Below the pieces are notes generated by a model. That model did no database searches. It was not told the DNA's origin and worked only from the letters and a program-made list of their open reading frames with translations. Shown here piece by piece: positions 12,660 through 39,492 of a DNA stretch of 39,492 nucleotides. Origin of the DNA: a virus; IMG/VR virus record IMGVR_UViG_3300030419_005136, positions 1-39,492 of that record. One strand, given 5' to 3'. The position numbers and the translations under genes were made by a program. The stretch's first letter is position 1. Every line of letters starts with the position of its first letter.

Positions 12660-12755
12660 CATGTCTAAACACGGAACATTAAAGGGCTTGCTGCGGGGCT
12701 AAGGGAACGGAAATACCCCACATGCCATAAACGATAGATCAAAGTGCCACCGGAT

Positions 12756-12774
12756 GCAACACTTAGCGTGTTAA
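12756..12774. promoter_or_regulatory. ACAC-N5-GTGT operator-like palindrome overlapping a candidate -35 of a late or lysis promoter
   Basis: The site reads gcAACACttagcGTGTTaa. On the minus strand its arm overlaps TTGCAT-17nt-TATCGT, about 75 nt upstream of the terminator at 12635-12659. Confidence 0.4.
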
Positions 12775-12857
12775 ATGCCCCTCAAGAGTGTTACACACCA
12801 GCATGCCAACCACCATCACGGCACGTGCTGGATACTCTTAACAGATAGGTTTGCTCA

Positions 12858-14126
12858 TTACCCCGCCACCCCTTGCCACCACTGGGGCTGGTCGCTGTTG
12901 TGATAAAACGACAATCTTGGTTCTGTCTCGGTCAGAAACACGCTAAAACCGCGCTCACATAGCCAGGTATGCCAGCGCTCCAACGCATCGAGAATCTGCC
13001 GCTCAGCGTAGGTATGAATGTAGGTACGGTCGAGCTTCGATAGCGCATGGTTCAGCAACAACTCACCGGCCAGATACTCGACCCCGAGGTCAGCCCACGT
13101 TGTACGGGCCAGCTTACGCAGGTCATGGGAATGCCACCGCGCACCGCTGGCACTCACCACCAAATCAAACACGGCTGAACGGGATAGCGGCTTTCCTTTG
13201 GATGCACCAGGGAACAGATACACGCCCCGGTAACCGTTCGCCTGCTGATAAGCGCGGTAACGGGTTAGCAGCGTCACGGCCATGGGCGTTAACGGCAGGC
13301 GGTGTTGTCGCTTTGATTTTGTGTTGTCGGTAGGGATAGTCCAGGTGCGCGCTTCCAGATCGAACTGAGGCCACTTCGCTAAACGCGTTTCCCCTATGCG
13401 GGTGCCAAACAGCAGCATCAACAACAGCAGGAAACACCCCGGCGGTTCGCACGAACGCAAGGCGCTTATCAGATCGGGCACATCGGCAGCGGTTAGCGCC
13501 CCCGCCTTAGCTGGGGTTTTCGCGTCGATGAAATCACCCACATTCACGCCTGCGAAGGGGTCAGTATCCAGCAGGTTCAGCTTACGGGCTTGCTTAAACG
13601 CGGCTTTGATCACGCCAAATATCAAACGAACGTAAGCAACGGAATAATGCTCTTGCAGCGGCCACACCAAGCCACTGTCGATACACGCCGGGGTAATGCC
13701 TGCCAACGGCTGGGCACCGAACAGGGGCAATAGGTGCCGATTAACGGCGGTTTTGATCGATGATTTTCGAGTAGCGGATAACCGGCCATGAGACGCCGAA
13801 CGGTCACGATACCAACACAGCAGGTCAGCCACGGTTTCCCACGCATCGACGCCCACCGGCCCCGCCGGATCAAGCGCCAGCTTGGCCTCCAACTCAGGCA
13901 ACCGCGCCAGCAGGGCGCGGGTCGTCAACTCCGGGTAATTGCCCACCCGATGCCAATGGCCACGCCCACCCGCGTAGCGCACCACGTACCAGCTGGCACG
14001 CTCACGGGAAGCATGAAAGCGCACCCGCACCGGGTAGCGCGGGTCGCGCAACTGGAAAATATCAGGGTCAGGTAGGTGCCGCTTAATCGCAGCATCAGAG
14101 AGGGGAACAGCGAGGGTTTTAGGCAT
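12858..14126 (-). CDS. int: tyrosine integrase (P4-like)
   Basis: 422 aa. The C-terminal catalytic region reads ...RIGETRLAKW...HSHDLRKLARTTWADLGV...LLNHALSKLDRTYIHT (R, H-x-x-R, H, Y). Confidence 0.85.
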   Translation of the reverse strand: MPKTLAVPLSDAAIKRHLPDPDIFQLRDPRYPVRVRFHASRERASWYVVRYAGGRGHWHRVGNYPELTTRALLARLPELEAKLALDPAGPVGVDAWETVADLLCWYRDRSASHGRLSATRKSSIKTAVNRHLLPLFGAQPLAGITPACIDSGLVWPLQEHYSVAYVRLIFGVIKAAFKQARKLNLLDTDPFAGVNVGDFIDAKTPAKAGALTAADVPDLISALRSCEPPGCFLLLLMLLFGTRIGETRLAKWPQFDLEARTWTIPTDNTKSKRQHRLPLTPMAVTLLTRYRAYQQANGYRGVYLFPGASKGKPLSRSAVFDLVVSASGARWHSHDLRKLARTTWADLGVEYLAGELLLNHALSKLDRTYIHTYAERQILDALERWHTWLCERGFSVFLTETEPRLSFYHNSDQPQWWQGVAG

Positions 14127-19684: not shown

Positions 19685-20854
19685 ATGTGGTTTACCAACA
19701 TCACCGTTTACCAGCTCCACAACGCCCAAGCGATCGACAGCATAACGCTGCATGAAACGCTGCAAGCAGAAGCCGCCAAGCCGTTAGGCAATACCGACGC
19801 CAAGCGCCTTGGCTGGACACCCCCAGCAGGTCGCGCCAGCAACGCCTATTTACATGAAAGCCAAGGCCACCGCCTGCTCAGCATGCTCAAACAGCAACGC
19901 ATGCTGCCGCCCAAGGTCGTCAAAGCAGCGGTCGAGGAAAAGGTCGCGGAAGTCGAAGCCAACGAAGGCCGCAAGGTCACGCGCAAAGAAAAAACCGCCT
20001 TCAAAGAACAGATCACCGAGGAGCTGCTACCCCGCGCCTTTATCGATAGCGTCAAAATCGACGCATGGTGGGACGTAGAAAAAAACCGCATCATCATCAA
20101 CAGCGGCAGCCGCGCCCGCTGCGAAGAGCTGTTAGACCTGCTACGCGAAACCCTCGGCAGCCTCAAAGCCACCCCGCTCAGCACCCAAACGCTACCCATC
20201 CGCGCCATGACCACCTGGGTAGGCGACGCCAGTCACCGCCCCGCCAACCTCCAGCTCGGCGACAAAGCCACGCTCAAAGCCAAAGGCGACGACGGTAAAA
20301 TAGCCGCCACGCAAGTGGATCTCGACAGCGACGAAATACAGCAGCTACTCGAAAGCGGGCGCCAAGCCACCAACCTCGCCATTACCATCGACGAACGCGT
20401 GAGCGGCGTACTCACCGACAGCCTGCAGCTAAAAGGGCTGCGCTTTAGCGACAAGCTCATAGAGCAAGCCGACATGACCGAAACAAAGAGCGACGACGGC
20501 GACGACGCCATCGCCCGGCTGGAAAGCGACTTTTTCCTCATGGCCCACGCCCTAAGCGACACGCTGGATAGCCTCGTTCACATGCTGGGCGGTGAAACCG
20601 TACGTGAAGTAGCAGCAGAAAAAGGCACACGCCCCGACGACAGCCACCCCGGCGAACAGATCGGCGGCTTTGAAAAAGAAGAGCCGTTATTGAAAGAGGC
20701 CATCGAGCTAGTGAAGCGCTCCCCGCGTGACAAGCTCACGGTTTCCAAGCTCCAGCGTCATTTCAAAATTGGTTACAACCGCGCCGCATGGATGCAAGCC
20801 TACCTGATCCAAAACGGCCACATCCCCGACCACTACGCGCAGCTAACCCCATGA
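19685..20854 (+). CDS. rdgC: RdgC-like recombination-associated protein fused to an FtsK-gamma-like winged helix
   Basis: The N-terminus MWFTNITVYQL matches E. coli RdgC MLWFKNLMVYRL, with colinear RdgC blocks for about 300 aa. The C-terminus DKLTVSKLQRHFKIGYNRAAWMQAYLIQNGHI matches FtsK gamma [28 protein letters not shown]. Confidence 0.75.
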   Translation: MWFTNITVYQLHNAQAIDSITLHETLQAEAAKPLGNTDAKRLGWTPPAGRASNAYLHESQGHRLLSMLKQQRMLPPKVVKAAVEEKVAEVEANEGRKVTRKEKTAFKEQITEELLPRAFIDSVKIDAWWDVEKNRIIINSGSRARCEELLDLLRETLGSLKATPLSTQTLPIRAMTTWVGDASHRPANLQLGDKATLKAKGDDGKIAATQVDLDSDEIQQLLESGRQATNLAITIDERVSGVLTDSLQLKGLRFSDKLIEQADMTETKSDDGDDAIARLESDFFLMAHALSDTLDSLVHMLGGETVREVAAEKGTRPDDSHPGEQIGGFEKEEPLLKEAIELVKRSPRDKLTVSKLQRHFKIGYNRAAWMQAYLIQNGHIPDHYAQLTP

Positions 20855-21991: not shown

Positions 21992-22257
21992 CCACAAAAC
22001 TGCATAGCGCTACTCTGCCCGAAGTCGCTGCAAAATCAGCGACCGGGTTTAGCAGCTCAACGGACATTGGCGCACAAGCGCCCCCAATCATCGTGTAGGC
22101 GCTATTTTTGTGCCCGCGTGATGCACTATGGCGGGCCGTGCGTGGGGCGCTTCGGCGCGCCGGGTTTCCAATGTCCCCGGTCTGCTAACCCGCGTACGGT
22201 TCGCCTCCATCGTTTAGCAGCGACAGGCGAACTCCAACAGACTTGGAGAATCGCACC

Positions 22258-23040
22258 ATGAGCACCCCCACTATCACAGTGTCTGGCGTCACCCTTCCCT
22301 ATATTGAATATCAGCAGCAACCCGTCGTCACTTTCGCCATGATCGACGGCGTACATTCAAAATCCAAGGCGACGGCACGACGCTCATTTCAGCGAAACAA
22401 AAAGCATTTTATTGAGGGTGAAGACTTCTATGCCCTTGATTCTGAAAGGTTGGGACAAATTGTCACTACCTATCCCGACCTGTTTCCGGCGGCAACCACA
22501 CGCCTAACCCTCTTCACCGAAACCGGCTACCTTATGCTGGTCAAATCGTTTACCGACGACCTCGCATGGCAAGTACAGCGCCAGCTCGTCAAAAGCTATT
22601 TCCGCGTCAAAGGCGCGATGCAGCCCACCACCGCCGAGCCCATCCCCACGCCCATCGACCACCGCCAGCGCGAACAGCTCACCAACGCGGCTAACGCCGT
22701 GTTTCGCAATTTCCACGGCATGCGCCAAAGCGCCACCGGCTGGTTTTACAACGGCGTGCGCACCGACTACTGCCTAAAACGCATCGAAGATTTAAGCCAG
22801 GACGACTTCCCGGCGGTGATGGAACGCCTCCAAGCCCTACGCCCCAAGGTGCGCCAATACGAAGATTTTAGGTATGACTTTCAACAGTCGTTTTTAAAAG
22901 AGGTGGTAGGCGAAGGCCAGCCCTACACGGCATGGATCAGCAAGCTAGCCGGTGGCCAACACCACATCGGCCAACGCCCCAACTGGAAAGCGATAGCCAA
23001 GCAAGTGCTAATCCACAACGGCTTACTCACCAAACAGTAA
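22258..23040 (+). CDS. ORF6N/KilA-N domain protein (antirepressor-type DNA-binding protein)
   Basis: ATG 22258 with a GGAGA SD. The N-terminus QPVVTFAMIDGVHSKSKATARRSFQRNKKHFIEGEDFY...LFTETGYLMLVKSFTDDLAWQVQRQLVKSYF fits ORF6N. Confidence 0.6.
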   Translation: MSTPTITVSGVTLPYIEYQQQPVVTFAMIDGVHSKSKATARRSFQRNKKHFIEGEDFYALDSERLGQIVTTYPDLFPAATTRLTLFTETGYLMLVKSFTDDLAWQVQRQLVKSYFRVKGAMQPTTAEPIPTPIDHRQREQLTNAANAVFRNFHGMRQSATGWFYNGVRTDYCLKRIEDLSQDDFPAVMERLQALRPKVRQYEDFRYDFQQSFLKEVVGEGQPYTAWISKLAGGQHHIGQRPNWKAIAKQVLIHNGLLTKQ

Positions 23041-23088: not shown

Positions 23089-23102
23089 CTGCCTGAACGC
23101 CT

Positions 23103-23225
23103 GCGTTATAAAACGCTAGCGTTTTAGCGTTTTATCTTGCACCCCTAGCAGCGCTTTTCTATACTAGCGTTATTGCGTGCTAGCGTTATTTAACGCTGTA
23201 ACGCCAGTGCGCAAAAACGCAACGT
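23103..23225. promoter_or_regulatory. array of GCGT/ACGC tetramer boxes (candidate partition site and par operator)
   Basis: The core reads GCGT-tatt-GCGT-gcta-GCGT-tattta-ACGC-tgta-ACGC-cagt-GCGC-aaaa-ACGC (23167-23220). Three more boxes lie at 23103-23130. The array ends 20 bp before parA. Confidence 0.55.
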
Positions 23226-23244
23226 TAGCCAAGGGGAAACACCA

Positions 23245-23895
23245 ATGGGATACAAAATTGCCTTCGTGAGCCAAAAGGGCGGCGTCAGCAAAAGCACCCT
23301 AAGTCGAGCACTCGGCACCACCTATGCGGCGGCGGGCTGGAACGTCAAAATCGCCGACCTCGATATTAACCAGTCCACCTCGTTTACATGGCTGCAGCGC
23401 CGCCTCAAAAGCGGCGTAACGCCCGAGGTGGCGGTGGAAACCTTCGGCACGGTGGCCAGCGCCCTCAAAGTAGCTGACACCTACGACCTAATGATTTTCG
23501 ACGGTGCGCCCCACGCCACCAAAGCCACCGCCGAAGTGGCCCGGCTTGCGGATCTCGTCGTTCTGCCTACCGCGTTAAGCGTTGACGACCTTGAACCCAC
23601 CGTAAGGCTGGCCAACACACTCACCGGCCAAGAGGGCGTACCCATTGAGCGCATCGCCATCGCGCTGAGCAAAGTAGGCAAGAGCAAAACGCAGCTGCAG
23701 GATGCCCGCGCCTACCTCGCCCATACGCCCTATTTTGTACTCGATGGCCAAGTACCCGAGCGCGACGCGTTTGTATTAGCCCAAGATAAAGGGCTGTCGA
23801 TTGTTGAAACCCCCTTCAAAGGCCCGAAGGCCCAAGCGGATGAACTGATACAAAACATCATCAACCGCTTTGAATCACTCGTTCAGTCAGCGTGA
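23245..23895 (+). CDS. parA: ParA/ParF-type partition ATPase (small, type Ib)
   Basis: Deviant Walker A KGGVSKST in MGYKIAFVSQKGGVSKSTLSRALG. 216 aa, with no N-terminal HTH domain. Confidence 0.8.
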   Translation: MGYKIAFVSQKGGVSKSTLSRALGTTYAAAGWNVKIADLDINQSTSFTWLQRRLKSGVTPEVAVETFGTVASALKVADTYDLMIFDGAPHATKATAEVARLADLVVLPTALSVDDLEPTVRLANTLTGQEGVPIERIAIALSKVGKSKTQLQDARAYLAHTPYFVLDGQVPERDAFVLAQDKGLSIVETPFKGPKAQADELIQNIINRFESLVQSA

Positions 23896-23919
23896 AATAA
23901 CGCTAGAACGCTAACACGC
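23890..23919 (+). repeat. degenerate copy of the 30-bp GCGT/ACGC-box repeat between parA and parG
   Basis: gcgtgaaataacgctagaacgctaacacgc. Confidence 0.55.
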
Positions 23920-23932
23920 AGGAGTAAGCAGC

Positions 23933-24175
23933 ATGGCGAAACCGTCACTTAAACCCAGCAGCAAAGGCGCACCACCCACGGCAGCTACCCCCGGCCCGGT
24001 AGTGGGCAACAACACCAGCAAACCGGAAAGCGGCGAAAAGGTGCCGCTGAATTTCCGCGTTGATCCTGAAATGCGCCGGGAGTTTAAAGCGTTTGCCGTA
24101 GAGCATGACATGCAAATGGTGGACGTACTCAAGGAAGCCTGGGCAGCGTATAAGCGGGAAAAAGGGAAGGGCTAA
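23933..24175 (+). CDS. parG: ribbon-helix-helix ParG-like centromere-binding protein
   Basis: 80 aa with an AGGAG SD. It has a flexible basic N-terminus, then VPLNFRVDPEMRREFKAFAVEHDMQMVDVLKEAW (an RHH beta-strand plus helices). Confidence 0.6.
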   Translation: MAKPSLKPSSKGAPPTAATPGPVVGNNTSKPESGEKVPLNFRVDPEMRREFKAFAVEHDMQMVDVLKEAWAAYKREKGKG

Positions 24176-24178
24176 ACC

Positions 24179-24535
24179 ATGGCGATCAACGAAACTGCCG
24201 AGCTTGAACGGCTGATACCCAGCTATGAGCTGGCACTATGCACTATCGCTGGGCGGCTGAATGACAACAACAAATACGCCATGGAAGCGGTGCTGATCGG
24301 CTCGCACCCAAGCGGGAAGGGCGTAACCGCTGCCATCCGTTGCGATGCACGCTGGGGAACGGCCTACGCACTGCAGGAAGCACCCTACAGCACCTATCAA
24401 GACGCGCTAAGCGCTTTTGGCGTCATGCTAGACGACATTACCGCCCGCAACGAAGGCCGCGCAAAATGGAAGGATGAAGCGTGGTGGGAACAGCACCACG
24501 ACGACTTGAAAGCCCGCTATGGCTTTGAGCTATAG
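24179..24535 (+). CDS. hypothetical protein
   Basis: 118 aa, starting 3 nt after the parG stop. No recognised motif. Confidence 0.45.
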   Translation: MAINETAELERLIPSYELALCTIAGRLNDNNKYAMEAVLIGSHPSGKGVTAAIRCDARWGTAYALQEAPYSTYQDALSAFGVMLDDITARNEGRAKWKDEAWWEQHHDDLKARYGFEL

Positions 24536-24613
24536 CACACACTAAAACGCCCACCCGGTGGCTAGGCCGGGCGGGCGTTACGCAACGACATAATACCAAT
24601 GGGGATTACTATC

Positions 24614-24769
24614 ATGTCAGCAACAGAATATACCACGATTGCACGCACACCGTTAAACCAGCTGCATACGCTGCCGCTGCACCTGCTGTGCGCCTACCTA
24701 TACCAATGCCCAACCATCAGCCGCCGTGCGCTAGAACGCATCGTGCGTATCCATGAGGAGGTCGTATGA
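24614..24769 (+). CDS. 51-aa hypothetical protein
   Basis: Below the ORF-track cutoff. ATG 24614 has a GGGGA SD. The stop overlaps the next ATG (ATGA). Confidence 0.35.
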   Translation: MSATEYTTIARTPLNQLHTLPLHLLCAYLYQCPTISRRALERIVRIHEEVV

Positions 24770-25065
24770 TTAATTACTTCCAAGACAACCCAATGGAGGC
24801 GCTAACGCGCCTCATTAAAGCGGCCCAAGGAGACAGCCACCAAAGCCACCACGTGCGTCGATTCCTGCTTGGTTTGTACAACGCTGAAGAATGGCCCTTT
24901 GAAATGAATCGCCTCAGGGCGCTGGATCGTCAGCTGCAAATGGCCTGCTTTCGGGTGTTAGAGCTTGATGTCGTGACATGTGAGCGTGATATACACGAGT
25001 ACCTGGAAAATGGCGGCACTATTTTTCAGCAATTCTGGCAGCAGGAAAGCGCCAGCAGTGATTGA
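24766..25065 (+). CDS. hypothetical protein of a plasmid/ICE-associated family
   Basis: 99 aa. The block VRRFLLGLYNAEEWPFEMNRLRALD resembles a conserved plasmid/ICE accessory family, which I recall only imprecisely. Confidence 0.45.
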   Translation: MINYFQDNPMEALTRLIKAAQGDSHQSHHVRRFLLGLYNAEEWPFEMNRLRALDRQLQMACFRVLELDVVTCERDIHEYLENGGTIFQQFWQQESASSD

Positions 25066-25081
25066 CCTTTTAGCGGCAAGC

Positions 25082-25113
25082 AATAGCCCGGCCAATGAGC
25101 CGGGCTATTTTTA
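25082..25113 (+). terminator. intrinsic terminator ending the rightward operon
   Basis: AATAGCCCGG-ccaatgag-CCGGGCTATT followed by TTTTA. Confidence 0.8.
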
Positions 25114-25125
25114 TGCCTGAGCAAC

Positions 25126-25160
25126 GAAAAAGCCCCAATCCGGGCAGACTGGGGCTTTAT
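25126..25160. terminator. second hairpin, possibly a bidirectional terminator
   Basis: gAAAAA-AGCCCCA-atccgggcagac-TGGGGCT-TTAT. Confidence 0.45.
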
Positions 25161-25326
25161 GTGTATGAGGCATTGGCGTGCCTTCATACAAAGGTAAAAA
25201 CCTATCGATAAAGCTAACAAGAAAAAATTAACACAATGAGCGGCAGGATCAAGCCTGTTTCCTCCTCGCATGTAATCAGGTTAATGACCTGACTAAGCAG
25301 CGGGCCGCGATTGATAACGGTATATA

Positions 25327-25356
25327 AAATTAAAAACCCCACCGGTAAGGCGGGGT
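25327..25356 (-). terminator. intrinsic terminator after the GNAT toxin gene
   Basis: Minus strand CCCCGCC-ttacc-GGTGGGG followed by TTTTTAATTTT. Confidence 0.7.
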
Positions 25357-25364
25357 AGGTTTTG

Positions 25365-25877
25365 CTATCGCAACGATTTAACCAGTGTCAGCTCATCGCT
25401 GGGCAAAGGCTTAAAACCGTATCGCTTATAAAAATCCACCGCATCAGGCAACGCGTTTATCATCAGGGCCACAGACCCCACTAAACGCGACTGATCGGCT
25501 GCAGTTTGCCAAGCAGCCAGTAGCAAACGGCAACCGACCCCCTTGCCTTTTAGTCGGCTATCGACGGCTAAACGCCCTAACGTGGTCACGGGAACGCTTC
25601 GGGGCATGTTCTTTTTTAACTTGCCCATCATTTTTTCGCGGTCCACTGCACCAGATGCAAGCGCAAAATATCCTAGCACTAGCTTTGTGCCTGGGGCGCA
25701 CACTACATAGACCGTAGTAGCACCACTTTGATGGTTGCCTAACGCTTCACTGGCTAAAAACTTATTTAGCGTGAACACGCCACAATCGAAGTGGCTTAGG
25801 TCGTGCTGAGGCGTTAAGAGCTCTGGGGCTGCGACGACGCCCAAATCGGTGTTTTGTTGAGAAGTTTCTGAAAGCAT
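25365..25877 (-). CDS. GNAT-family acetyltransferase toxin (TacT/AtaT/KacT-like)
   Basis: GGAGGA SD. The N-terminus has PELLTPQHDLSHFDCGVFTLNKFL and the acetyl-CoA loop RLAVDSRLKGKGVGCRLL. It pairs with an upstream RHH/DUF1778-like gene. Confidence 0.75.
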   Translation of the reverse strand: MLSETSQQNTDLGVVAAPELLTPQHDLSHFDCGVFTLNKFLASEALGNHQSGATTVYVVCAPGTKLVLGYFALASGAVDREKMMGKLKKNMPRSVPVTTLGRLAVDSRLKGKGVGCRLLLAAWQTAADQSRLVGSVALMINALPDAVDFYKRYGFKPLPSDELTLVKSLR

Positions 25878-26122
25878 GGGTCCTCCGATGCTGGCTGTTT
25901 AATAGCCTCTTCGAAGAACGCGTAGTCGGTTTCATTCAGCATGTAGAATCGTCGGTTCAGCAGTACCTCTTCGGCTTTTCGACATGCGGCTTCCACCACG
26001 AAACTGGTTCGATCTCCCCCCAGCTCCGCTACGGCTCTATCGATCAAGGCGCGTTTTTTAGGGTCAACACGCATATTGAGTGCCAGTGGCTTAGCCACTG
26101 CCTCAGCAGCTGTGCTTTTCAT
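25814..26122 (-). CDS. DUF1778/RHH antitoxin (TacA-like)
   Basis: LNMRVDPKKRALIDRAVAELGGDRTSFVVEAACRKAEEVLLNRRFYMLNETDYAFFEEAI. It overlaps the toxin start by 64 nt. Confidence 0.7.
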   Translation of the reverse strand: MKSTAAEAVAKPLALNMRVDPKKRALIDRAVAELGGDRTSFVVEAACRKAEEVLLNRRFYMLNETDYAFFEEAIKQPASEDPCFQKLLNKTPIWASSQPQSS

Positions 26123-26456
26123 GATGTATGTCCTATCGCTGTTTAAGGGTGTTTCTCTCCTTAGCCTTGCTCAGCAGCTTGTTGCTGCCTGCAAGGCGCG
26201 TTTAGTTTATGGGTTCTGTTGTGCCTTTGGTTGGGTTAGCCATGTGTCATCTCCTTGGTTTTTTAGTAATGGTTTTGCTTTCTTTGCCTGTGTTGGTTGC
26301 CACGATATATAGCAAAATACATGCGGCAACAATTTCAGTATAACATATTATGTAGCTCAAAACTACACAATGTAGCACAGAGCGTTACGCTGCTTTAGGT
26401 ACTCCCTAAGCGCCCACTGGTGGCCCGCCTGATCAATCAGGCGTTTTAGTCAAACC

Positions 26457-26502
26457 CCCACCCAAAACGCCCACCTGCTAAACTGCCCACCCAAAACGCC
26501 CA
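26457..26502 (+). repeat. two 17-bp direct repeats CCCACCCAAAACGCCCA upstream of the serine recombinase
   Basis: Copies at 26457-26473 and 26486-26502, with a 29-bp period. They end 21 bp before the recombinase ATG. Confidence 0.7.
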
Positions 26503-26523
26503 AAACACCGCCAGGGGGAACGC

Positions 26524-27171
26524 ATGTACGTCAGGGGATACCTACGCGCCAGCACGGCAGAGCAGAACGCCCAGCGGGCACGCAGCACGCTAGAACACTT
26601 CGCCGCTGAACATCGCCGTGAGGTAGTGAGCTGGTATATCGAGAATGTGAGCGGCGCTAGCAGCCAGCGCCCGGAACTCAGGAGGCTTCTGGAAGACGCC
26701 AAGCAAGGTGATGTGCTACTGATCGAATCGGTAGACCGCCTTTCCCGCCTGGGGGCGGCAGAGTGGCGGCACCTGCGGGGGCAGATTGAGGCGCTAGGGT
26801 TACGGGTGGTGTCGCTGGACCTTCCCACTAGCTACGCAGCCATGGCCACGCCCAGCCAGGGCGAGGATTTTACCGCCCGCATGCTCGATGCGCTGAATAC
26901 CATGATGCTAGACGTACTCGCAGCGGTAGCCCGCAAAGACTACGACGACCGGCGAACGCGCCAGCGCCAGGGGATAGAGCAAGCAAAGAAGGAAGGCAAG
27001 TACCAGGGAAAGCGGCCCAACAAGGCACTACACCAGCGAATTGAAGCGCTATTGAACGCCCGCGATGGTGAAGGCAAACCGTTCACCACGGCGCGCATTT
27101 GCGAGCTAGCCGGGTGCGGTGAAACCACTGTGAAAAAGGTAAAGCGGGCTATGCGCGAAAAGGCACACTAA
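26524..27171 (+). CDS. serine recombinase (resolvase/invertase family)
   Basis: The catalytic N-terminus is MYVRGYLRASTAEQN. The block VLLIESVDRLSRL and a C-terminal HTH (ARICELAGCGETTVKKV) are present. Confidence 0.8.
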   Translation: MYVRGYLRASTAEQNAQRARSTLEHFAAEHRREVVSWYIENVSGASSQRPELRRLLEDAKQGDVLLIESVDRLSRLGAAEWRHLRGQIEALGLRVVSLDLPTSYAAMATPSQGEDFTARMLDALNTMMLDVLAAVARKDYDDRRTRQRQGIEQAKKEGKYQGKRPNKALHQRIEALLNARDGEGKPFTTARICELAGCGETTVKKVKRAMREKAH

Positions 27172-27440
27172 GCGCCACGTGAACGCCGCTTTCTTACCCG
27201 GCCCTGCAACCGCTGCCACCATTCGCCGGGTAGCCAGATCGACACCCACCGCAATAGCAATTCAGCCCGGCGGGCGTCCGGGTAATCGTCGGGGTAGTGG
27301 GTAAAGTCGCTGGCCAGCGCCAGCAGTTGGGCCTTGCCTTGCTGTTCTACGGCATCGTGGGCGGGGTCAAAGGCAGCATCTAGCAGCACAGCTAACCACG
27401 TGGCCACTTCATCGGCGTTCATTTGCTTGGGGCGGGGCAT
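27168..27440 (-). CDS. hypothetical protein
   Basis: ATG 27440 with an AGGTG SD. 90 aa. Convergent with the recombinase and overlapping it at the stop codons (CTAA). Confidence 0.35.
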   Translation of the reverse strand: MPRPKQMNADEVATWLAVLLDAAFDPAHDAVEQQGKAQLLALASDFTHYPDDYPDARRAELLLRWVSIWLPGEWWQRLQGRVRKRRSRGA

Positions 27441-27483
27441 AGCGGGCACCTGTTAGCGTGACATATTCCCACTATAGCAGCCG

Positions 27484-27768
27484 CTAATCACCCCGGAAAT
27501 TGTTTTTGAGTATCCAGTTATCCGGCGTGCCGGTGTTTTGACGCCGGGCGTGGGCCGCTGCCTGCTGTGATCGGGTGCGGGCAATCACGCCAATGGCCAA
27601 GCGATCTAACCGGCGGCTGCCTGGGTGCTGCACATAACCCACCTCGGCACACGCAGCGCATGGGAAGCGGTGAAAAAGCCCATGCGTAAAGCCGTGGCCG
27701 TTGCAGTGCGTGCAAGTGGTGGCCTGCAGTTGGGCAAGCGTGCGGGGAAGGGAAGGCGGTAGCGTCAT
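27484..27768 (-). CDS. hypothetical zinc-finger protein (CxxCxGxG-type)
   Basis: CTHCNGHGFTHGLFHRFPCAAC. The SD is weak and the region is high in G+C, so coding status is uncertain. Confidence 0.35.
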   Translation of the reverse strand: MTLPPSLPRTLAQLQATTCTHCNGHGFTHGLFHRFPCAACAEVGYVQHPGSRRLDRLAIGVIARTRSQQAAAHARRQNTGTPDNWILKNNFRGD

Positions 27769-27998
27769 GCGCTTAGTTTACCGGGGGTTGTGGGTTATGT
27801 CGCGCTAGCGACATGCAAGCCGCCCACTGAACTATAAACAGGAATTATACCTGCGCGGCGAACGGGCGTTAGCCCGCCCAACTATGCGGCACCCCTTGCC
27901 ACTGCTAAACGGGGTTTGGGGTGGTTTTTAGCGGGGTCCAGGGGTGCAACCCCTGGGACAACCAGCCCGGCAGGGCTGGGCGTCAGTGTAGAGCGGTT

Positions 27999-28205
27999 CT
28001 GCGCTTGCGCAGGCATTTAAAGCCCTTGACCTTGTGCCCTTAAAAGAGCTTCCGCGCTTGCGCGGGCATTGTGGATAAACCCCACGTTAGTGGGGGTTAG
28101 CTGAACCTATTTAATTACATAAGAGAAGCATATTAACGGTGTACAGCTAATTTAATCTCATATTACCTAATTCTATTTTCAAATCACTTAATTTTACATC
28201 TTTAA
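27999..28205. other. candidate plasmid-type origin downstream of repA
   Basis: 14-bp palindromes CTGCGCTTGCGCAG (27999-28012) and CCGCGCTTGCGCGG (28052-28065), each followed by gcatt. Then a DnaA box, an AACCCCAC/GTGGGGTT hairpin, and a roughly 105-bp AT-rich tract with three CTAATTTAAT-like repeats. Confidence 0.5.
28070..28078 (-). promoter_or_regulatory. perfect DnaA box TTATCCACA
   Basis: Plus strand tgtggataa is TTATCCACA on the minus strand. It lies between the palindromes and the AT-rich tract. Confidence 0.55.
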
Positions 28206-28389
28206 AGGGGGTTCGAATCAGCGGCGGGGTTTGGGCTTTCCGGGGGTGTTATCGGGCTTAGATCGGTGAGATTTTGCGCCAGCGCGGCGCTAAAACAGGC
28301 GGGGAAGTGAGGGCAGGGCAACGCTTAACCACGGGCGATGCGCCCGGCGTGGGCGCTATGTGGCGTTTTTAGGTGGGGTTAGCAGCGGG

Positions 28390-29355
28390 CTAGTAACGTC
28401 GCTGCCGGTCTAGCCACTCTTCATACGGCGGGTACTTGATGCGCACCAGCTTGTTCACCTCGGCATGGCTGGCACCGGGGTTATCGCGCACCACCTGGGC
28501 AAAGTAGGCGTTTGCCTCTTGGTTATAGCGGCGCTGCAGTTCTTTTTCATCGTTGGCGTCGGGTAGATCCTTCTTACCCCGGCGCTGCTTCTGCATCGCT
28601 CTGGGGCCGCTGCCTGCCATCGCTAGGCGGCTACGGGCCTGGGCGGCGTCGTACGCCTTGGGGTGCTGTTCGCGGTGCTTACGGCGGGCTTTCTTAATGC
28701 GGTTGCTGCACCAGTCGCGGAACTCCTTAAACTTCTGGTAGCCCACACGCCCCAGCGCCAGCAGAAAATCCGGGTTGAGTAGCTTCACAGCAGGCCGGGC
28801 GCGCTTAGTACCGTCGGCTTTCACCTCATGCTGCAAATGCACCGTAAACGCGCCAGCGAGCTTTAAGCGCCGGAAGGCGCGCCAAAAACGTTGGCTAGGC
28901 TCGGGGGCTTCCGGGGTGCTGCCGGGTGCCAGCAGGCCCGCCACGCGGGCAATTTCCGCACAGCTACGGTGTTTAAAACCACCATCCGCTAGTGGGGTGC
29001 CCACGCGCAAACTGGCGAACTCGGTAAACTGAATGATGGCAGAAAGCACCAGCGACTCAGCAGCGCGGGCCTCAGATCGGTTACAGCGGGGGTTGCCATC
29101 GGCGTTGGCCTTGCCGTTCAGGTTGGCCAGCGTGGGCAATAGGCCGGGGCTGGTGTAGTAGGCTTTGGCACCGTCTACCAGCGCTTGCAGTGTGGCGGGT
29201 AGCCGCCCCTTTTTAACGGGCTGGCAATAGCGCTCAAATTCCCCTTTCGCGGGGTTATGCCCGCACCGGTTACCGGTGCCCCACCACTTGCCGGGGTGTT
29301 CGTATGGCACGCGCCCCCACGTGAGGGGCTGCGCGTTCTCTGCTGCAGCATCCAT
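28390..29355 (-). CDS. repA: plasmid replication initiator, IncFII RepA-like
   Basis: 321 aa from ATG 29355. The central block ...SEARAAESLVLSAIIQFTEFASLRVGTPLADGGFKHRSCAEIARVAGL...RFWRAFRRLKLAGAFTV... and the basic C-terminus are colinear with IncFII RepA as I recall it. Confidence 0.5.
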   Translation of the reverse strand: MDAAAENAQPLTWGRVPYEHPGKWWGTGNRCGHNPAKGEFERYCQPVKKGRLPATLQALVDGAKAYYTSPGLLPTLANLNGKANADGNPRCNRSEARAAESLVLSAIIQFTEFASLRVGTPLADGGFKHRSCAEIARVAGLLAPGSTPEAPEPSQRFWRAFRRLKLAGAFTVHLQHEVKADGTKRARPAVKLLNPDFLLALGRVGYQKFKEFRDWCSNRIKKARRKHREQHPKAYDAAQARSRLAMAGSGPRAMQKQRRGKKDLPDANDEKELQRRYNQEANAYFAQVVRDNPGASHAEVNKLVRIKYPPYEEWLDRQRRY

Positions 29356-29411
29356 TCGCAAAATCTCTGTAGAGACTTGCCCGCGCCTTGTGCAGCAGTT
29401 AAACTCTGGGG

Positions 29412-29491
29412 AGTCGGTTTTGTGCCCCAGTCGCTAGTGCTGCTGCCCAAAACATCCGAGAAGCCCCAGCGCCAACTGGGGCTTTTCTTTT
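29412..29491 (+). ncRNA. candidate antisense (countertranscript) RNA against the repA leader
   Basis: Plus-strand TTGCCC (29377-82), a 17-nt spacer and TAAACT (29400-05). The terminator AAGCCCCAG-cgccaa-CTGGGGCTT+TTCTTTT (29461-29491) works only on the plus strand. The RNA would lie 57-136 nt upstream of the repA ATG. Confidence 0.35.
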
Positions 29492-29597
29492 GGGTGTCTA
29501 TCTAGTTAATTTGTATGTCTTTTTTGCCTTCCAACCAACGCCGTCCGGCGCTGGCCATCAATTCACTGTTTGCCAATCCTAGCATCCCGAAAGCGTT

Positions 29598-29616
29598 TTG
29601 ACACGAACTGTGTTAA
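29598..29616. promoter_or_regulatory. operator-like palindrome TTGACAC-gaact-GTGTTAA upstream of the repA leader
   Basis: It has the same ACAC-N5-GTGT core and TTAACAC-type arms as the immunity-region sites. Confidence 0.5.
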
Positions 29617-29658
29617 AAAAAATTCCTCAAAACGCTCTCAACCTGGGCGAATGCGGGG

Positions 29659-29871
29659 CTAGTGAGGGCCGTGCTTGCCCGCTCGCTGCAGCTCATGCCC
29701 CAGCGCATCGCGCACCATCGCTAGAATCATGTGATTGCCCGCGTGCGGCTCTTCGCCAGTCACCTGCATAAATTCCATCATCACATCAATGTTTTGCAGC
29801 GTATCGCGCTGGTTAATGCCCACCAGTACGTTAGTGTTATATCGCTGCGTCGTTCCCTGCTGCTCGCTCAT
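29659..29871 (-). CDS. 70-aa orphan protein under a LexA-box promoter (candidate SOS-induced antirepressor)
   Basis: ATG 29871 with a GGGGAGG SD. The product begins MSEQQGTTQRYNTNVLVGINQRDTLQNIDVMMEFMQVTGEEPH...; no recognised family. Confidence 0.6.
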   Translation of the reverse strand: MSEQQGTTQRYNTNVLVGINQRDTLQNIDVMMEFMQVTGEEPHAGNHMILAMVRDALGHELQRAGKHGPH

Positions 29872-29910
29872 TGTGTCGCCTCCCCGGTGCGCGTTTGCGC
29901 ACACCTAAAA

Positions 29911-29926
29911 CTGTTTATACATACAG
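29911..29926. promoter_or_regulatory. LexA (SOS) box CTGT-ttatacat-ACAG
   Basis: A perfect CTGT-N8-ACAG with an AT-rich spacer. On the minus strand it lies immediately downstream of the -10-like hexamers TAGTAT/TATGAT. Confidence 0.65.
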
Positions 29927-30095
29927 CATCATACTACACCGCATGACGCTAATGGAAAATTGCTAAGCGGTTTTAAGCGCTTACGCGGATGTTAGCGGCC
30001 CTGAACCCGCGCTCGAAATAACGCTCAACACCGCCAACACCTTTATCAAAACACGAGCGACGTGCCGCGCAAGCATCCGAGAGACTTCTGTGCAG

Positions 30096-37700: not shown

Positions 37701-39492
37701 AGCGCGCTTTCAGAACCGTCGATCAAGCCTAGCCACAGGCTTTGGCCGGAATCATCAATACGGCGCAGGGTGTTATCCGCGACGGTTTCCCAGCTAAGGA
37801 AGCTGTTGGCGATGCGCTGGCTGGCGTCTTCTGAGGCGGTGGCGGTGTTTTCTGCTTCCCGCTGCGCTGCTTGAAACGACTCCTGCAGCATGCCCATGGC
37901 CTGCATGTACTGCACGGCATTGATGCGGCCCGTGGCCAGGGCCAAATTCAGCGTGCCCACGTCCTGCGCGTACTGCCGCGCGGCGCGGCGGTTGGGCTGA
38001 ATGCGGTCTAGCAGGTTTTCGTAGCTGTTGGCGAGGGTGGTGGTTTGTTTGGCGGCGTCACGGGATGCGGCGGCGGCGGTGTTGGTGGATGCACTGGCAG
38101 CATCCGCAGTGACTACTATGTCTTCAAGCGCCTGAGCACCTGCGCGGTCGGCGCTAGTGGCCTGCTCTCTCGCTTCTCGGTTTTTGCGTATAGCTGTTTG
38201 CAGCTCGACTTGACGAGCCCACAGGTCTGCCAACGCTTCTGTTTGTTGATCCACTGCACCAGACACACTATCTGCCATGCCTTGGTGTGAGTTTTCATAG
38301 AATGCTTGGCGAGCTTCCAGTTCTGTTAGCTGCGCCATGGCTTCTTGAGCCTGCAGCGAAACAGCCTCAAGAGAGTTAATTAGGTTGTCGTACGTGGCAT
38401 CCAGGGCAGCGGCAGAACCGTCACGTATAGCGGCGCTATTATCATCCAGTGCAATAGTTGCGTTTTTTGCTGCTGCATCGACAAAGCCAAGTTCTTCGCG
38501 GAAATAGAACAATGAGCCAACCGCTATCACAGCTGCGCCAGCTGGCCCACCCACTAACGTTAACGCCCCAGAAACACCACGGACTGAAGCGGCTAACGCG
38601 GTTTGGCTGGCGACCACAGTCGTACTAACGCCCGCCATGCGCGCCAGCGCCATTTGATAGGCGATAGACTGCTGGGTAGCCGCCAGTTTTGCCGCCGTAG
38701 CGGTGGCAAACGCGCCCGCGTAGCGGCCTGCCAGCAGTGCGGCAAGCACTTGAGCGCCATCGGTGAGGTGGCCAACCACCACCTCTGCTCCGCCAACCTC
38801 TTGGATAAACGCATTGACGTTTTGTAGCCCTGCCGTAATCGCAGGCACTAGCTCAGAAAGCAGTGTTTGGCTGACACCTTGCGCGGCAAACTTTAGGCGA
38901 TCGACTTCATCGTTATAGCTTGCCATGGCGTTGGCGGTGTCTTGACTGATCGTTAGGCCCAGCGCGTCAGCCTCCGCGCGCATGGCAGCAATGGCATCAG
39001 TGCCGCTGTTGACGATCTGCACCAGTTTCACGCCTTCACTATCCCAAAGCTGCTGTGCAAGGCGCACCCGCTCACTGCTGTTTTCCACGCCTTGCATGGC
39101 TTCCGCAATGCGTTCGAACTGGTCTTCTGGGGCCAGTTGGTTCAGCTCTTGGGCACTAAGGTTGAGGCGATCCAGCGCCGCAACCGCAACACCAGTGCCT
39201 GCAGCGGCTTCGGCAATGCGGCGGGTTTGGCGCTGCCATGCCGTCGTTAGCTGGTTGAACTCGACGCCAGAGAGGCTGGCGACGTAGTTGTACTGGCTCA
39301 GCGCTTCCGTGCTGGCACCAATCCGCAGGTTGGTTTTCTGTAGCTGGTCGCCCCAGTTGATCTGGTTTTGCAGCGAGTTAGCCGCAAACATGCCCGCAAT
39401 AGCACCGGCAATAGGCGCAGCGGCGCGGCGCAGCACGGCCAAACCTTGGCTAGTGGCGTTAACGTCTTGGTTAAACTGACGGCTACGGCGGG
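34733..39492 (-). CDS. tape measure protein, body and 3' end (5' end is at 223..1 across the circular junction; total 1627 aa)
   Basis: A long Ala/Gln-rich helical protein with a Gly-rich hydrophobic centre. The C-terminus GGVFTNSIVSSPTLFDMGLMGESGDEAIMPL is typical of lambda-like gpH. The track start at 39442 is a TTG inside the frame. Confidence 0.85.
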   Translation of the reverse strand, partial: RRSRQFNQDVNATSQGLAVLRRAAAPIAGAIAGMFAANSLQNQINWGDQLQKTNLRIGASTEALSQYNYVASLSGVEFNQLTTAWQRQTRRIAEAAAGTGVAVAALDRLNLSAQELNQLAPEDQFERIAEAMQGVENSSERVRLAQQLWDSEGVKLVQIVNSGTDAIAAMRAEADALGLTISQDTANAMASYNDEVDRLKFAAQGVSQTLLSELVPAITAGLQNVNAFIQEVGGAEVVVGHLTDGAQVLAALLAGRYAGAFATATAAKLAATQQSIAYQMALARMAGVSTTVVASQTALAASVRGVSGALTLVGGPAGAAVIAVGSLFYFREELGFVDAAAKNATIALDDNSAAIRDGSAAALDATYDNLINSLEAVSLQAQEAMAQLTELEARQAFYENSHQGMADSVSGAVDQQTEALADLWARQVELQTAIRKNREAREQATSADRAGAQALEDIVVTADAASASTNTAAAASRDAAKQTTTLANSYENLLDRIQPNRRAARQYAQDVGTLNLALATGRINAVQYMQAMGMLQESFQAAQREAENTATASEDASQRIANSFLSWETVADNTLRRIDDSGQSLWLGLIDGSESALDTVKRGFQQTLAEIAHMLTTQRLTFHVAGMMGLDTAGMPGGGGGGFNLSSLGSLYTGATNLPYIGDAISSAGSALGFGGSSAAAGGLYANALTGSAAAGGLYAGASTGAAVGGLYGNALTGAATTASGGFMSAASAAMPWLAGGALVDNVLGLGIVDGIVGGISGLFGGRKTAPKFELATVGQDVDPTRHGLFENYGEGVYSRGALGTVGFYDPNTARLEETFDGFDNAKAFLDGITALDNALVGAAANLDNGAEKTQAMASAAQAVRLNASDAAGIANQLATRTLAVVDVIDGDFSAALRGLGLDAEQITGRVVQAANAMQLLDSNSARLNLQFDASAEGALNAAAGLSDYVGGLDNIAAVNQAYYNAAFTETERLSNAQLDLYSSLSNVTDEVPTTVAGLRTLVEAQDLNTEAGGQLAYQLMQLAPALRETNAAVRQAIEQAYQSELGRAPDTAGLEYWFDRVASGSLTLDGALWNIANSAEAASVAAIGGADAMRERTQLELQLLRVQGNANALRDYELSQLAESNRPLQERIWAIEDERAAMQEAERAQQERIRALEQEARTMMSAGQNIRQFVESLQNTGGAGVSPETAYQNAEESFLAAISTIYTSDDSALVQDTISGITGIAQQYLNAAEAYGASGNIYQQAQALVEGSLDDLASRLGSDELEDIDPQLQAMVDQLKNVATNTGLAGPLAKQVPLAQTFAEFFGGSGNQNYMVRQIGALAEIEKAIRNLEFSSGGGSDIDTSPSQPAGKTLTRSQVTSLVDASDNFSFLKQTMRGDSSQRAFSRSLAGDFNSGSLAPSVARNNVDKLISAVGFDEANYLRLNPDIAEAIGRGEVYSGFQHFLLHGIDEGRKFAKGGVFTNSIVSSPTLFDMGLMGESGDEAIMPLTRHSNGSLGVRAELPPMPQFPLLGKSDVTQVMRDMQRTIEQQGKTIERLLNDSNTHLAAANNQRGAAATQQIAATKEGNKMLKKLEDDARLEAAKR
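39394..39492. repeat. second copy of the 99-bp terminal repeat
   Basis: Identical to bases 1-99. Confidence 0.9.

Follow-up and report, generated by a model that had tools for sequence, protein, structure and literature searches.

A RepA-Pa-related plasmid replicon in the genome of a lambda-type temperate phage

How does a temperate phage persist in its host when its genome encodes both a plasmid maintenance module and a tyrosine recombinase of the integrase family? The question is raised by the IMG/VR virus record IMGVR_UViG_3300030419_005136, which we analysed over its whole length of 39,492 bases (58% GC; hereafter the window). An earlier note, written from the sequence without database searches, had described a lambda-like temperate phage with a full plasmid maintenance module and had offered two fates for its prophage, a plasmid or an element switching between integrated and episomal states. 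The description is supported by the genes of the module and by circular plasmids with the same gene order. The choice between the two fates is unsettled but leans to a plasmid prophage in which the recombinase has another role. We regard the element as a phage-plasmid (PMC7969092, PMC12977533) that combines a RepA-Pa/pRA2-related replicon under REx-C-type control with type Ib ParF/ParG-like partition and TacAT-type addiction. The window is, with good probability, a complete temperate phage-plasmid genome, and since it contains a plasmid module complete for replication, partition and stability, the prophage most likely exists as a free, low-copy circular plasmid and not as a chromosomal insert.

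The window closes on itself. Bases 1–99 match bases 39394–39492 exactly, and such a terminal direct repeat is the usual assembler overlap that closes a circle. The unit is thus a 39,393-bp circle with no host flanks; the earlier note, too, had read the contig as closing on itself. The phage genes include lambda-type packaging and head genes (Nu1, the gpA terminase, a lambda-family portal, a ClpP-capsid protein and gpZ), a tail tube protein, a lysozyme and an S24/helix-turn-helix (HTH) repressor. By megablast, no related record was found among 50,697 phage records, and the only plasmid match was the circular 45.9-kb ‘plasmid unnamed’ of Halomonas qaidamensis XH36 (hereafter the Halomonas plasmid). 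Its genes stand in the same order as those of the window: head, lysis, recombinase, early genes, repressor, RdgC, antirepressor, ParA, ribbon-helix-helix (RHH) protein, RepA and tail.

This gene content bears on whether the window is instead a plasmid with a captured defective prophage, or a phage-plasmid cointegrate, whose phage function has been lost. Hybrids and defective phage-plasmid-like elements are frequent (PMC12977533), and several open reading frames (ORFs) of the window are unannotated. Against this, the set for packaging, head, tail, lysis and immunity is complete, is syntenic with the Halomonas plasmid and shows no disruptions, and the element has a phage-like size, 33 of 50 related IMG/VR contigs falling within 35–45 kb. 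We give a defective element almost no credence.

RepA and the control of its replicon

The early genes leave one candidate for the initiation of replication. Scans with Pfam and PHROGs recognised a DUF1064 Holliday-junction resolvase, an RdgC/FtsK-gamma fusion, an HNH-like protein and unknowns among them, and no O/P-type initiator, helicase, loader or primase, several ORFs being unannotated. RepA is therefore the sole recognisable initiator, in line with the first reading of this genome. The repA gene (28390–29355, minus strand) encodes 321 residues from its ATG.

That reading had also called RepA IncFII-like, and here the family label did not survive. Neither PF02387 (IncFII_repA) nor any other Pfam family was hit by the query or by 46 homologues at an E-value of up to 1. 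RepA matched nothing in NCBIfam, nor in the PDB when searched with phmmer and with a 47-sequence profile, and hhalign of the RepA family profile against R100 RepA returned a probability of 1.1%. We therefore rejected an identity with IncFII RepA. The role as initiator stands and the likeness to IncFII is one of layout alone. None of the searches moved the protein to a non-replication family, so that its label changes and its function stays. The two other Pfam assignments proposed in the earlier note, ParA and Resolvase, were both recovered (below).

The sequence relatives of RepA are plasmid initiators. RepA matches phrog_20951 (3.5e-33), and its family comprises 116 clusters in a large protein collection, a few of them named at source as ‘plasmid replication protein repA’ and many lying on contigs of 34–46 kb. 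A tblastn search found the family in 176 plasmid records, including 99 from Pseudomonas, 50 from Aeromonas (pAsa5-type plasmids among them) and 9 from Legionella, where the homologues are often annotated ‘plasmid replication protein repA’. RepA is 46.8% identical to RepA of the P. antarctica plasmid pP27494_2 over residues 11–314, or 95% of its length (E 6e-81), and pP27494_2 gave its name to the ‘RepA-Pa’ replicon family of Bardaji et al. 2017 (PMC5304414). The N-terminal 177 residues also align with RepA of pRA2 (31% identity, E 1e-18), whose replicon was functionally defined by Kwong et al. 1998, as cited in PMC5304414. Judged by sequence, RepA belongs to the RepA-Pa plasmid initiators and is a distant relative of pRA2 RepA. 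An AlphaFold2 model (pLDDT 87, pTM 0.84) predicts a winged-helix-type core of helices and strands at about residues 94–193, followed by long C-terminal helices. Foldseek comparison of this model with the PDB gave nothing significant, only weak winged-helix matches to TFIIE, RTP and the DnaD N-terminal domain, and comparison with BFVD gave one unnamed viral protein.

Homologues of RepA also occur in other settings. Homologues of the N-terminal part alone (~residues 27–202) are found in Competibacter, Thiocapsa and Desulfovibrio, some of them chromosomal, and the gammaproteobacterial metagenome-assembled genome CBDALO01 has 15 distant homologues on different contigs (residues 1–239, ~28–30% identity). 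This distribution suggests that the N-terminal domain may also be used by another type of mobile element. A homologue in Vibrio vulnificus lies on a 97.7-kb chromosomal contig next to fur and pgi, in an element with Integrase_1, TraH and TraG_N, and is followed by a DnaA box and an AT-rich block; the replicon family thus occurs in an integrated conjugative-type element as well.

The candidate replication origin lies downstream of repA, at 27992–28206. Counted from the repA stop codon, it begins with an AT-rich block ~184–283 nt past the stop (28107–28206), which at 23% GC, compared with 58% for the window, is the AT-richest 100 nt of the whole sequence. Between this block and a DnaA box sits the hairpin CCCCAC-GTTA-GTGGGG (28080–28095). 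The DnaA box, TTATCCACA (28070–28078), is the only perfect copy in the window, where 0.09 would be expected, and beyond it lie two 26-nt repeats, each with a palindrome (27992–28017 and 28045–28070). This non-coding stretch is nearly identical in the Halomonas plasmid, in which the module is ~82% identical over its aligned part. An AT-rich block occurs 150 to 230 nt past the rep stop in 25 of 26 distinct relatives, and 18 of them also have a DnaA box with at most one mismatch. The arrangement fits the ‘essential downstream sequences’ of the related Pseudomonas replicons (PMC5304414).

The repA leader contains a counter-transcribed unit on the plus strand (29377–29491). A −35 element, TTGCCC (29377–29382), is followed after a 17-nt spacer by a −10 element, TAAACT (29400–29405), and the predicted antisense RNA would run for ~80 nt, from ~29412 to 29491. 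About 50 nt past the −10 lies a 12-bp terminator stem (29458–29487) with the loop CGCCAA (29470–29475) and a T run after it, the strongest terminator-like site of the region. The RNA has a predicted folding energy of −33 kcal/mol (z −3.5). We compared this unit with leader regions of relatives drawn from genome and IMG/VR collections. In 26 distinct relatives the −35 always keeps its TTGC and the −10 its TA-ACT, while the spacer and the body of the RNA vary. A terminator hairpin of 12–16 bp is present in all 34 distinct relatives, and its inner stem positions show three to four types of Watson–Crick pair, that is, compensatory change. The covariation was scored by folding each sequence and counting pairs at each stem position; MAFFT with RNAalifold was set aside because its alignment was not structure-aware and blurred the signal. 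No Rfam family matched the RNA at threshold, the weak match to ctRNA_p42d (20 bits, threshold 50) being essentially the terminator hairpin. Conservation and covariation together strongly support both the antisense RNA and the downstream origin, which the earlier note had listed as candidates.

On the opposite strand, the repA mRNA leader forms a stem-loop with the loop 5'-UUGGCG-3'. The antisense RNA lies 57–136 nt upstream of the start codon, so any inhibition of RepA synthesis would be indirect, through structure, a leader ORF or transcription. An 18-codon leader ORF (29455–29399) begins at a conserved ATG after the hairpin, and neither the Halomonas plasmid nor Salinicola preserves its length, frame or stop. 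A putative repA promoter on the minus strand (29576–29614; −35 TGTCAA at 29603–29598, −10 TAGGAT at 29581–29576) is overlapped by the inverted repeat ACAC-N5-GTGT; this block is conserved with the Halomonas plasmid, and a similar inverted repeat stands at the same place in relatives. Upstream of repA, a 70-residue protein (29659–29871, minus strand) is the positional analogue of a small replication regulator. It is 70% identical in the Halomonas plasmid and 28% identical to an ORF at the same place in Edwardsiella ictaluri, and Salinicola has a similar ORF. It matches no family and resembles neither R100 CopB nor the ORF that pRA2 has at the repB position. The promoter-like pair, the overlapping inverted repeat and this ORF would plausibly take part in the regulation of repA.

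Partition, addiction and resolution

The window also has a candidate partition locus. The ParA ATPase (23245–23895, plus strand; 216 residues) is of the small ParF-like type without an N-terminal DNA-binding domain. It matches Pfam CbiA (5e-13), the ParA-like phrog_164 (4.5e-34) and, below that model's cut-off, NCBIfam ParA_partition (8e-28). Its best solved relatives, TP228 ParA (5u1g) and ParF (4dzz), align end to end over residues 5–211 of the window protein, 5–210 facing 4–206 of ParF, and it is 96% identical to ParA of the Halomonas plasmid. Directly after parA comes a gene for an 80-residue RHH protein (23933–24175, plus strand), which is 94% identical in the Halomonas plasmid. It matches phrog_6024 (2e-13), RHH_10 (6e-4, 20.4 bits against a cut-off of 27) and, also weakly, PrgO (5e-4), and has no PDB match. 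We infer that it may be a ParG-like, centromere-binding partner of ParA.

Upstream of parA, a candidate operator and centromere occupies 23096–23235 (plus strand), where (T)AGCGTT/AACGCT units in both orientations flank a TTGCAC-N17-TATACT promoter and the palindrome AACGCTAGCGTT is visible. The window has 17 copies of TAGCGTT, where shuffled sequences give an expectation of 4.9, and five of the copies fall in the 76 bp of 23112–23187. Two units lie between parA and the RHH gene (23899–23913, minus strand). The array is conserved in the Halomonas plasmid, the closest relative. The parA–parG locus with a centromere-like array that had been proposed from inspection is present in all its parts, the ParG-like partner as a candidate with a sub-threshold RHH match.

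The proposed GNAT/RHH toxin–antitoxin pair was likewise borne out. The TacA-type antitoxin (DUF1778, RHH; 25814–26122, minus strand) matches Pfam TacA1 at 1.1e-18 (67 bits, cut-off 21). Immediately downstream of its gene, overlapping it on the same strand, is that of a GNAT acetyltransferase (25365–25877, minus strand; Acetyltransf_10 3e-9, phrog_1758 2.5e-30), a TacT-like toxin candidate. In sequence and arrangement the pair has the make-up of a TacAT system, a GNAT toxin and a DUF1778/TacA antitoxin in one operon.

A serine recombinase and candidate multimer resolvase had also been proposed, and the gene proved to be one of the resolvase/invertase class (26524–27171, plus strand; 215 residues with a C-terminal HTH). 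It matches Resolvase (3.5e-25), phrog_125 (6e-41) and, in the PDB, Sin/Bin3 (2.6e-11) and gamma-delta resolvase (8e-6), and Salinicola relatives have a 60%-identical recombinase at the same spot beside repA. Just upstream are two perfect 17-nt direct repeats, CCCACCCAAAACGCCCA, 29 nt apart (26457–26502, plus strand), and an AT-rich stretch with the palindrome TGTAG...CTACA (26340–26380). No res architecture is recognisable upstream of the gene beyond these direct repeats and the short palindrome, which could possibly serve as res, regulator or operator sites.

Gene identities, conservation and covariation, together with the plasmid state of relatives (below), suggest how the module may work. 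RepA would bind ~180–400 nt downstream of its own gene, in the region of the 26-nt repeats, the DnaA box and the AT-rich ~100 nt (23% GC), and with host DnaA would open the AT-rich stretch for theta replication by host enzymes. The ~80-nt antisense RNA, made from a constitutive promoter in the repA leader, would pair with the 5'-UUGGCG-3' stem-loop and so limit RepA synthesis, and the operator-like inverted repeat over the repA promoter and the 70-residue upstream protein may add transcriptional control. The ParF-like ATPase and the RHH protein would segregate the copies through the TAGCGTT array around the par promoter, the TacA/GNAT pair would kill plasmid-free segregants, and the small serine recombinase would resolve multimers.

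Around these genes the module varies. Three accessory ORFs lie on the plus strand at 24179–24535 (no match), 24599–24769 and 24766–25065 (DUF7673, 1e-26), and in the Halomonas plasmid the first and third are without counterpart. Two small minus-strand ORFs (27168–27449 and 27484–27768) separate the origin from the serine recombinase; they are 86% and 71% identical in the Halomonas plasmid and are also present in Salinicola and Kushneria. The second, next to the origin, encodes a Cys-rich protein with CxxCxGxG and CxxC motifs that matches phrog_5085 (2.5e-10) and, weakly, an anti-TRAP-like protein. The Halomonas plasmid has neither the serine recombinase nor the toxin–antitoxin pair, and its interval from repA to the tail genes contains a gene of the reverse transcriptase/maturase family (25638–26696) and other cargo. 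The accessory content of the module therefore turns over.

Plasmid-state relatives and the tyrosine recombinase

Relatives beyond the Halomonas plasmid provide the clearest indication of lifestyle. E. ictaluri pEI-2083-2 (36.7 kb) and A. veronii pWP8-S18-ESBL-11_1 (37.2 kb) are circular plasmid records with a 54%-identical RepA. Both carry lambda-type head genes, contractile-tail genes and a LexA-like repressor together with ParA, a serine recombinase, a tyrosine recombinase and RepA. Six further isolates also carry the E. ictaluri element in plasmid form (PMC11840174). In drafts of Salinicola, Kushneria, Aeromonas rivuli, Pseudomonas and Pontibacterium genomes, close relatives of RepA lie on contigs of 36.6–42.7 kb. 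An integrated prophage would normally assemble within a larger chromosomal contig. The relatives thus offer good indirect evidence that the lineage is episomal, and the same state is, by extension, probable for the window itself.

The E. ictaluri plasmid has been reported to carry the type VI secretion system genes VgrG/Pvc8 (PMC11840174). The annotation of its record shows a full tail, head and packaging set, and the reported secretion genes are therefore baseplate genes of a phage-plasmid.

Do these observations leave room for an ordinary integrative temperate phage, in which RepA and its origin would serve lytic or early replication, par and toxin–antitoxin would be accessory, and the circle would be a virion or replicative form? 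The window has an integrase-family gene and an S24 repressor, as integrative lambdoids do. RepA homologues with 31–41% identity occur in ten deposited Aeromonas and Pseudomonas phage genomes, and the 50%-identical RepA of V. vulnificus sits at the edge of a chromosomal conjugative-type element, so the RepA family alone is no proof of a plasmid lifestyle. These occurrences weigh against a plasmid prophage, and so do several further points. The window displays circular closure only, and a circle may come equally from virion, replicating or excised DNA; a record deposited as a ‘plasmid’ can be the circular genome of a phage from an induced culture; the initiator role of this RepA clade is argued from homology and gene context; the repA promoter and the antisense promoter both failed a strict consensus scan; the family matches of the RHH protein are all sub-threshold; and the tyrosine recombinase is complete in its catalytic residues and adjoins a complex conserved site, as an integrase with its attP would. 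Yet the relatives are separate circular replicons in finished genomes and element-sized contigs in isolate drafts, and antisense copy control, partition, addiction and resolution in one contiguous module are hallmarks of low-copy plasmids. We consider a purely integrative phage very improbable.

The tyrosine recombinase (12858–14126, minus strand; 422 residues) is the gene on which the choice between a plasmid prophage and a switching one depends. It lies between the early genes and the lysis genes and had been labelled a P4-type integrase, a label we rejected. The protein matches PF00589 alone (6e-15) and lacks the arm-binding domain PF13356, it scores 49.9 bits against the P4/CP4-57-type model PRK09692, whose cut-off is 434, and the nearest solved catalytic domain is that of XerD. 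We found no tRNA, and near the gene no tRNA-like fragment that could form part of an att site, only one short inverted repeat; nor do the chromosomal homologues inspected (below) lie at prophage ends. The residues R243, K270, H334, R337, H360 and Y369 are invariant in 33 homologues, so the enzyme is probably active.

The non-coding block that follows the recombinase stop codon (12700–12857) is a candidate recombination site. It holds AACAC/GTGTTA motifs in both orientations and, though non-coding, is more than 90% identical to the Halomonas plasmid; it is more conserved than the recombinase gene. Among close relatives its motifs are conserved, its spacers vary, and it exists in two allelic forms, one of them that of the window.

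The recombinase and this block are the chief grounds for a dual lifestyle, in which the phage would integrate through the recombinase and its adjacent site, replicate as a plasmid through RepA and Par, and switch between the two. The enzyme keeps the full R-K-H-R-H-Y set, its gene is retained in all plasmid-state relatives, and the motif-rich block of ~160 nt has two allelic forms, as attP specificity variants would. Published work also leaves room for phage-plasmids that pass back and forth between an integrated and a plasmid state, P88 being an example (PMC7969092). The genomic positions of homologues speak for another role. Homologues with at least 53% identity are confined to contigs of at most 43 kb. 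The four chromosomal homologues inspected are 43–45% identical to the window protein and none was at a prophage end: three lie inside prophages with phage genes on both sides, between the early/replication genes and the Q/lysis genes, which is also the position of the gene in the window, and the fourth is the second recombinase of an island whose edge bears a canonical P4-type integrase. The scans with Pfam and PHROGs showed no Xis-like gene, and the arm-binding domain and tRNA-like sequence are absent, as noted above. A narrow exact-pattern scan for the core of the block in metagenome and viral collections returned no other copy, attB or junction. We therefore rate a dual lifestyle as unlikely; because the chromosomal homologues are distant and number four, it keeps a modest share of the probability.

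Under the preferred reading, a plasmid prophage, the recombinase would act on the adjacent conserved site for a purpose other than integration, for example the resolution of multimers or concatemers. Extended to the family as a whole, the comparison indicates that these recombinases probably act on their own element, by resolution or as a switch, instead of integrating it.

Three further features of the phage genome deserve description. A C4 antisense RNA (Rfam RF01695; 22124–22211, plus strand; 66.7 bits, E 6e-11) is followed directly on its 3' side by an ORF6N-domain antirepressor gene (22243–23040, plus strand), just ahead of the par module. This arrangement resembles the immI region of P1 and P7. 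The early gene at 19685–20854 (plus strand) encodes an RdgC-like protein (PF04381, 4e-85) fused to a C-terminal FtsK-gamma winged helix (PF09397, 4.5e-9). XerD of E. coli is activated by the FtsK-gamma domain; a link between the fusion and the XerD-like recombinase was considered and dropped, and we claim none, because the fusion is missing from the Edwardsiella and Aeromonas relatives. Finally, a single 737-residue ORF (4863–7076, minus strand) joins a ClpP-type prohead protease (residues 99–237) to a major capsid domain (420–733), whereas the Halomonas relative has separate protease, decoration and capsid genes. The listed GTG start of this ORF overlaps the end of the portal gene by ~160 nt.

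Implications and comparison with known systems

The phage-plasmid lifestyle is already known, and the lineage itself is barely described: the literature searched, in which published catalogues were not covered, held no publication that treats it as phage-plasmids. The best-supported new details are the mapped antisense-RNA unit and the origin. All the parts are mapped, from the initiator and the origin through the antisense RNA, its promoter and its terminator to the partition site, the addiction module and the resolvase, and a replicon so well resolved could be cloned directly to give a mini-replicon or vector for Halomonas. Phage-plasmids transfer genes between the worlds of phages and plasmids and are often wrongly filed under one of the two, as the Edwardsiella relative illustrates. 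The element also links a phage to the RepA-Pa/pRA2 plasmid replicon family, whose members are without family annotation, and poses a testable question about tyrosine recombinases of a family located inside prophages and not at their ends.

A broader proposal joins two parts, and we offer the pair tentatively, doubting somewhat more than we believe that both hold together. The first part is that a widespread lineage of RepA-Pa phage-plasmids, unrecognised in the literature searched, exists in Halomonas, Salinicola, Kushneria, Aeromonas, Edwardsiella, Pseudomonas and Vibrio-related hosts and shares its antisense module with Pseudomonas plasmids. If true, this would provide a concrete example of the passage of replication-control modules between plasmids and phages. 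The second part is that the recombinases at the early/late junction, in plasmid and in integrated lambdoid prophages, form a non-integrating tyrosine recombinase family that may act as a Cre-like resolvase or as a switch.

The window resembles the known phage-plasmids P1, N15 and SSU5 (Pfeifer et al. 2021, PMC7969092) in uniting a temperate phage with plasmid replication, partition, toxin–antitoxin and recombinase genes, and the relatives of both are found as plasmids in finished genomes. In the searches made, its replication and partition proteins matched none of those of the named phage-plasmid groups, and its structural genes are lambda-type with cos packaging (Nu1/gpA), not P1-, N15- or SSU5-like. 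Phage-plasmids typically lack an integrase (PMC12977533), and the window, with a tyrosine recombinase that appears catalytically intact, departs from this typical, though not absolute, criterion. The combination is not new in principle, because P1 (Cre) and the SSU5 supergroup already carry tyrosine recombinases and resolvases (PMC7969092).

In partition, the closest model is the type Ib ParF–ParG–parH system of TP228. The 216-residue ATPase aligns with ParF end to end and is followed by the 80-residue protein with an RHH-like C-terminal half, and the short repeats around the operon promoter could be operator and centromere at once. The two differ in that the identity to ParF is low (E 7e-7), the RHH protein falls under every family cut-off and the TAGCGTT unit is specific to the lineage.

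The loop of the repA leader has the same motif, 5'-UUGGCG-3', as the target loop of the Inc RNA in the IncI-alpha/IncB plasmids, ColIb-P9 being the example. A 1998 paper by Asano et al. names the UUGGCG motif in the target RNA of ColIb-P9 Inc RNA in its title. The window differs from ColIb-P9 in that no pseudoknot partner or conserved leader peptide was identified in it, and many of its relatives have other loops.

The order of parts in the replicon is that of IncFII plasmids (R1/R100, copB-copA-tap-repA-oriR, the R100 layout being taken from its sequence record): a small gene, an antisense RNA, rep and a downstream origin. In both, an antisense RNA of ~80–90 nt is directed against the rep leader well upstream of the start codon, and ~0.2–0.4 kb past the initiator gene comes an origin that combines a DnaA box with an AT-rich stretch and lacks a long iteron array. 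Nordstrom (Plasmid, 2006) reportedly describes the R1 origin in detail. No sequence relation between the two was found: PF02387 matches 0 of 47 family members, no similarity to CopB and no Rfam match to CopA were seen, and no conserved Tap-like leader peptide was recognised, the 18-codon ORF being unconserved in the Halomonas plasmid. Compared at this level, the replicon is IncFII-like in layout and apparent function and is not a member of that group.

The closest likeness is to the RepA-Pa/REx-C replicons (PMC5304414), with which the window shares a leader of A-run, hairpin and T-run, AAAAGCCCCAGTTGGCGCTGGGGCTT in the window and AAAAGCCCCGGTTGGCGCCGGGGCTT in pP27494_2, the two hairpins differing by one compensated pair. 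The window hairpin corresponds to the REx-C ‘SaL1’ hairpin, described as the terminator of a putative antisense RNA (PMC5304414). As in pRA2, rep is preceded by a small gene and followed by important sequences (PMC5304414). Four Rep families were called non-homologous in that study, whereas here RepA-Pa and pRA2 RepA align at E 1e-18. The RepA-Pa and pRA2 replicons are plasmid-borne; that of the window stands in a phage genome.

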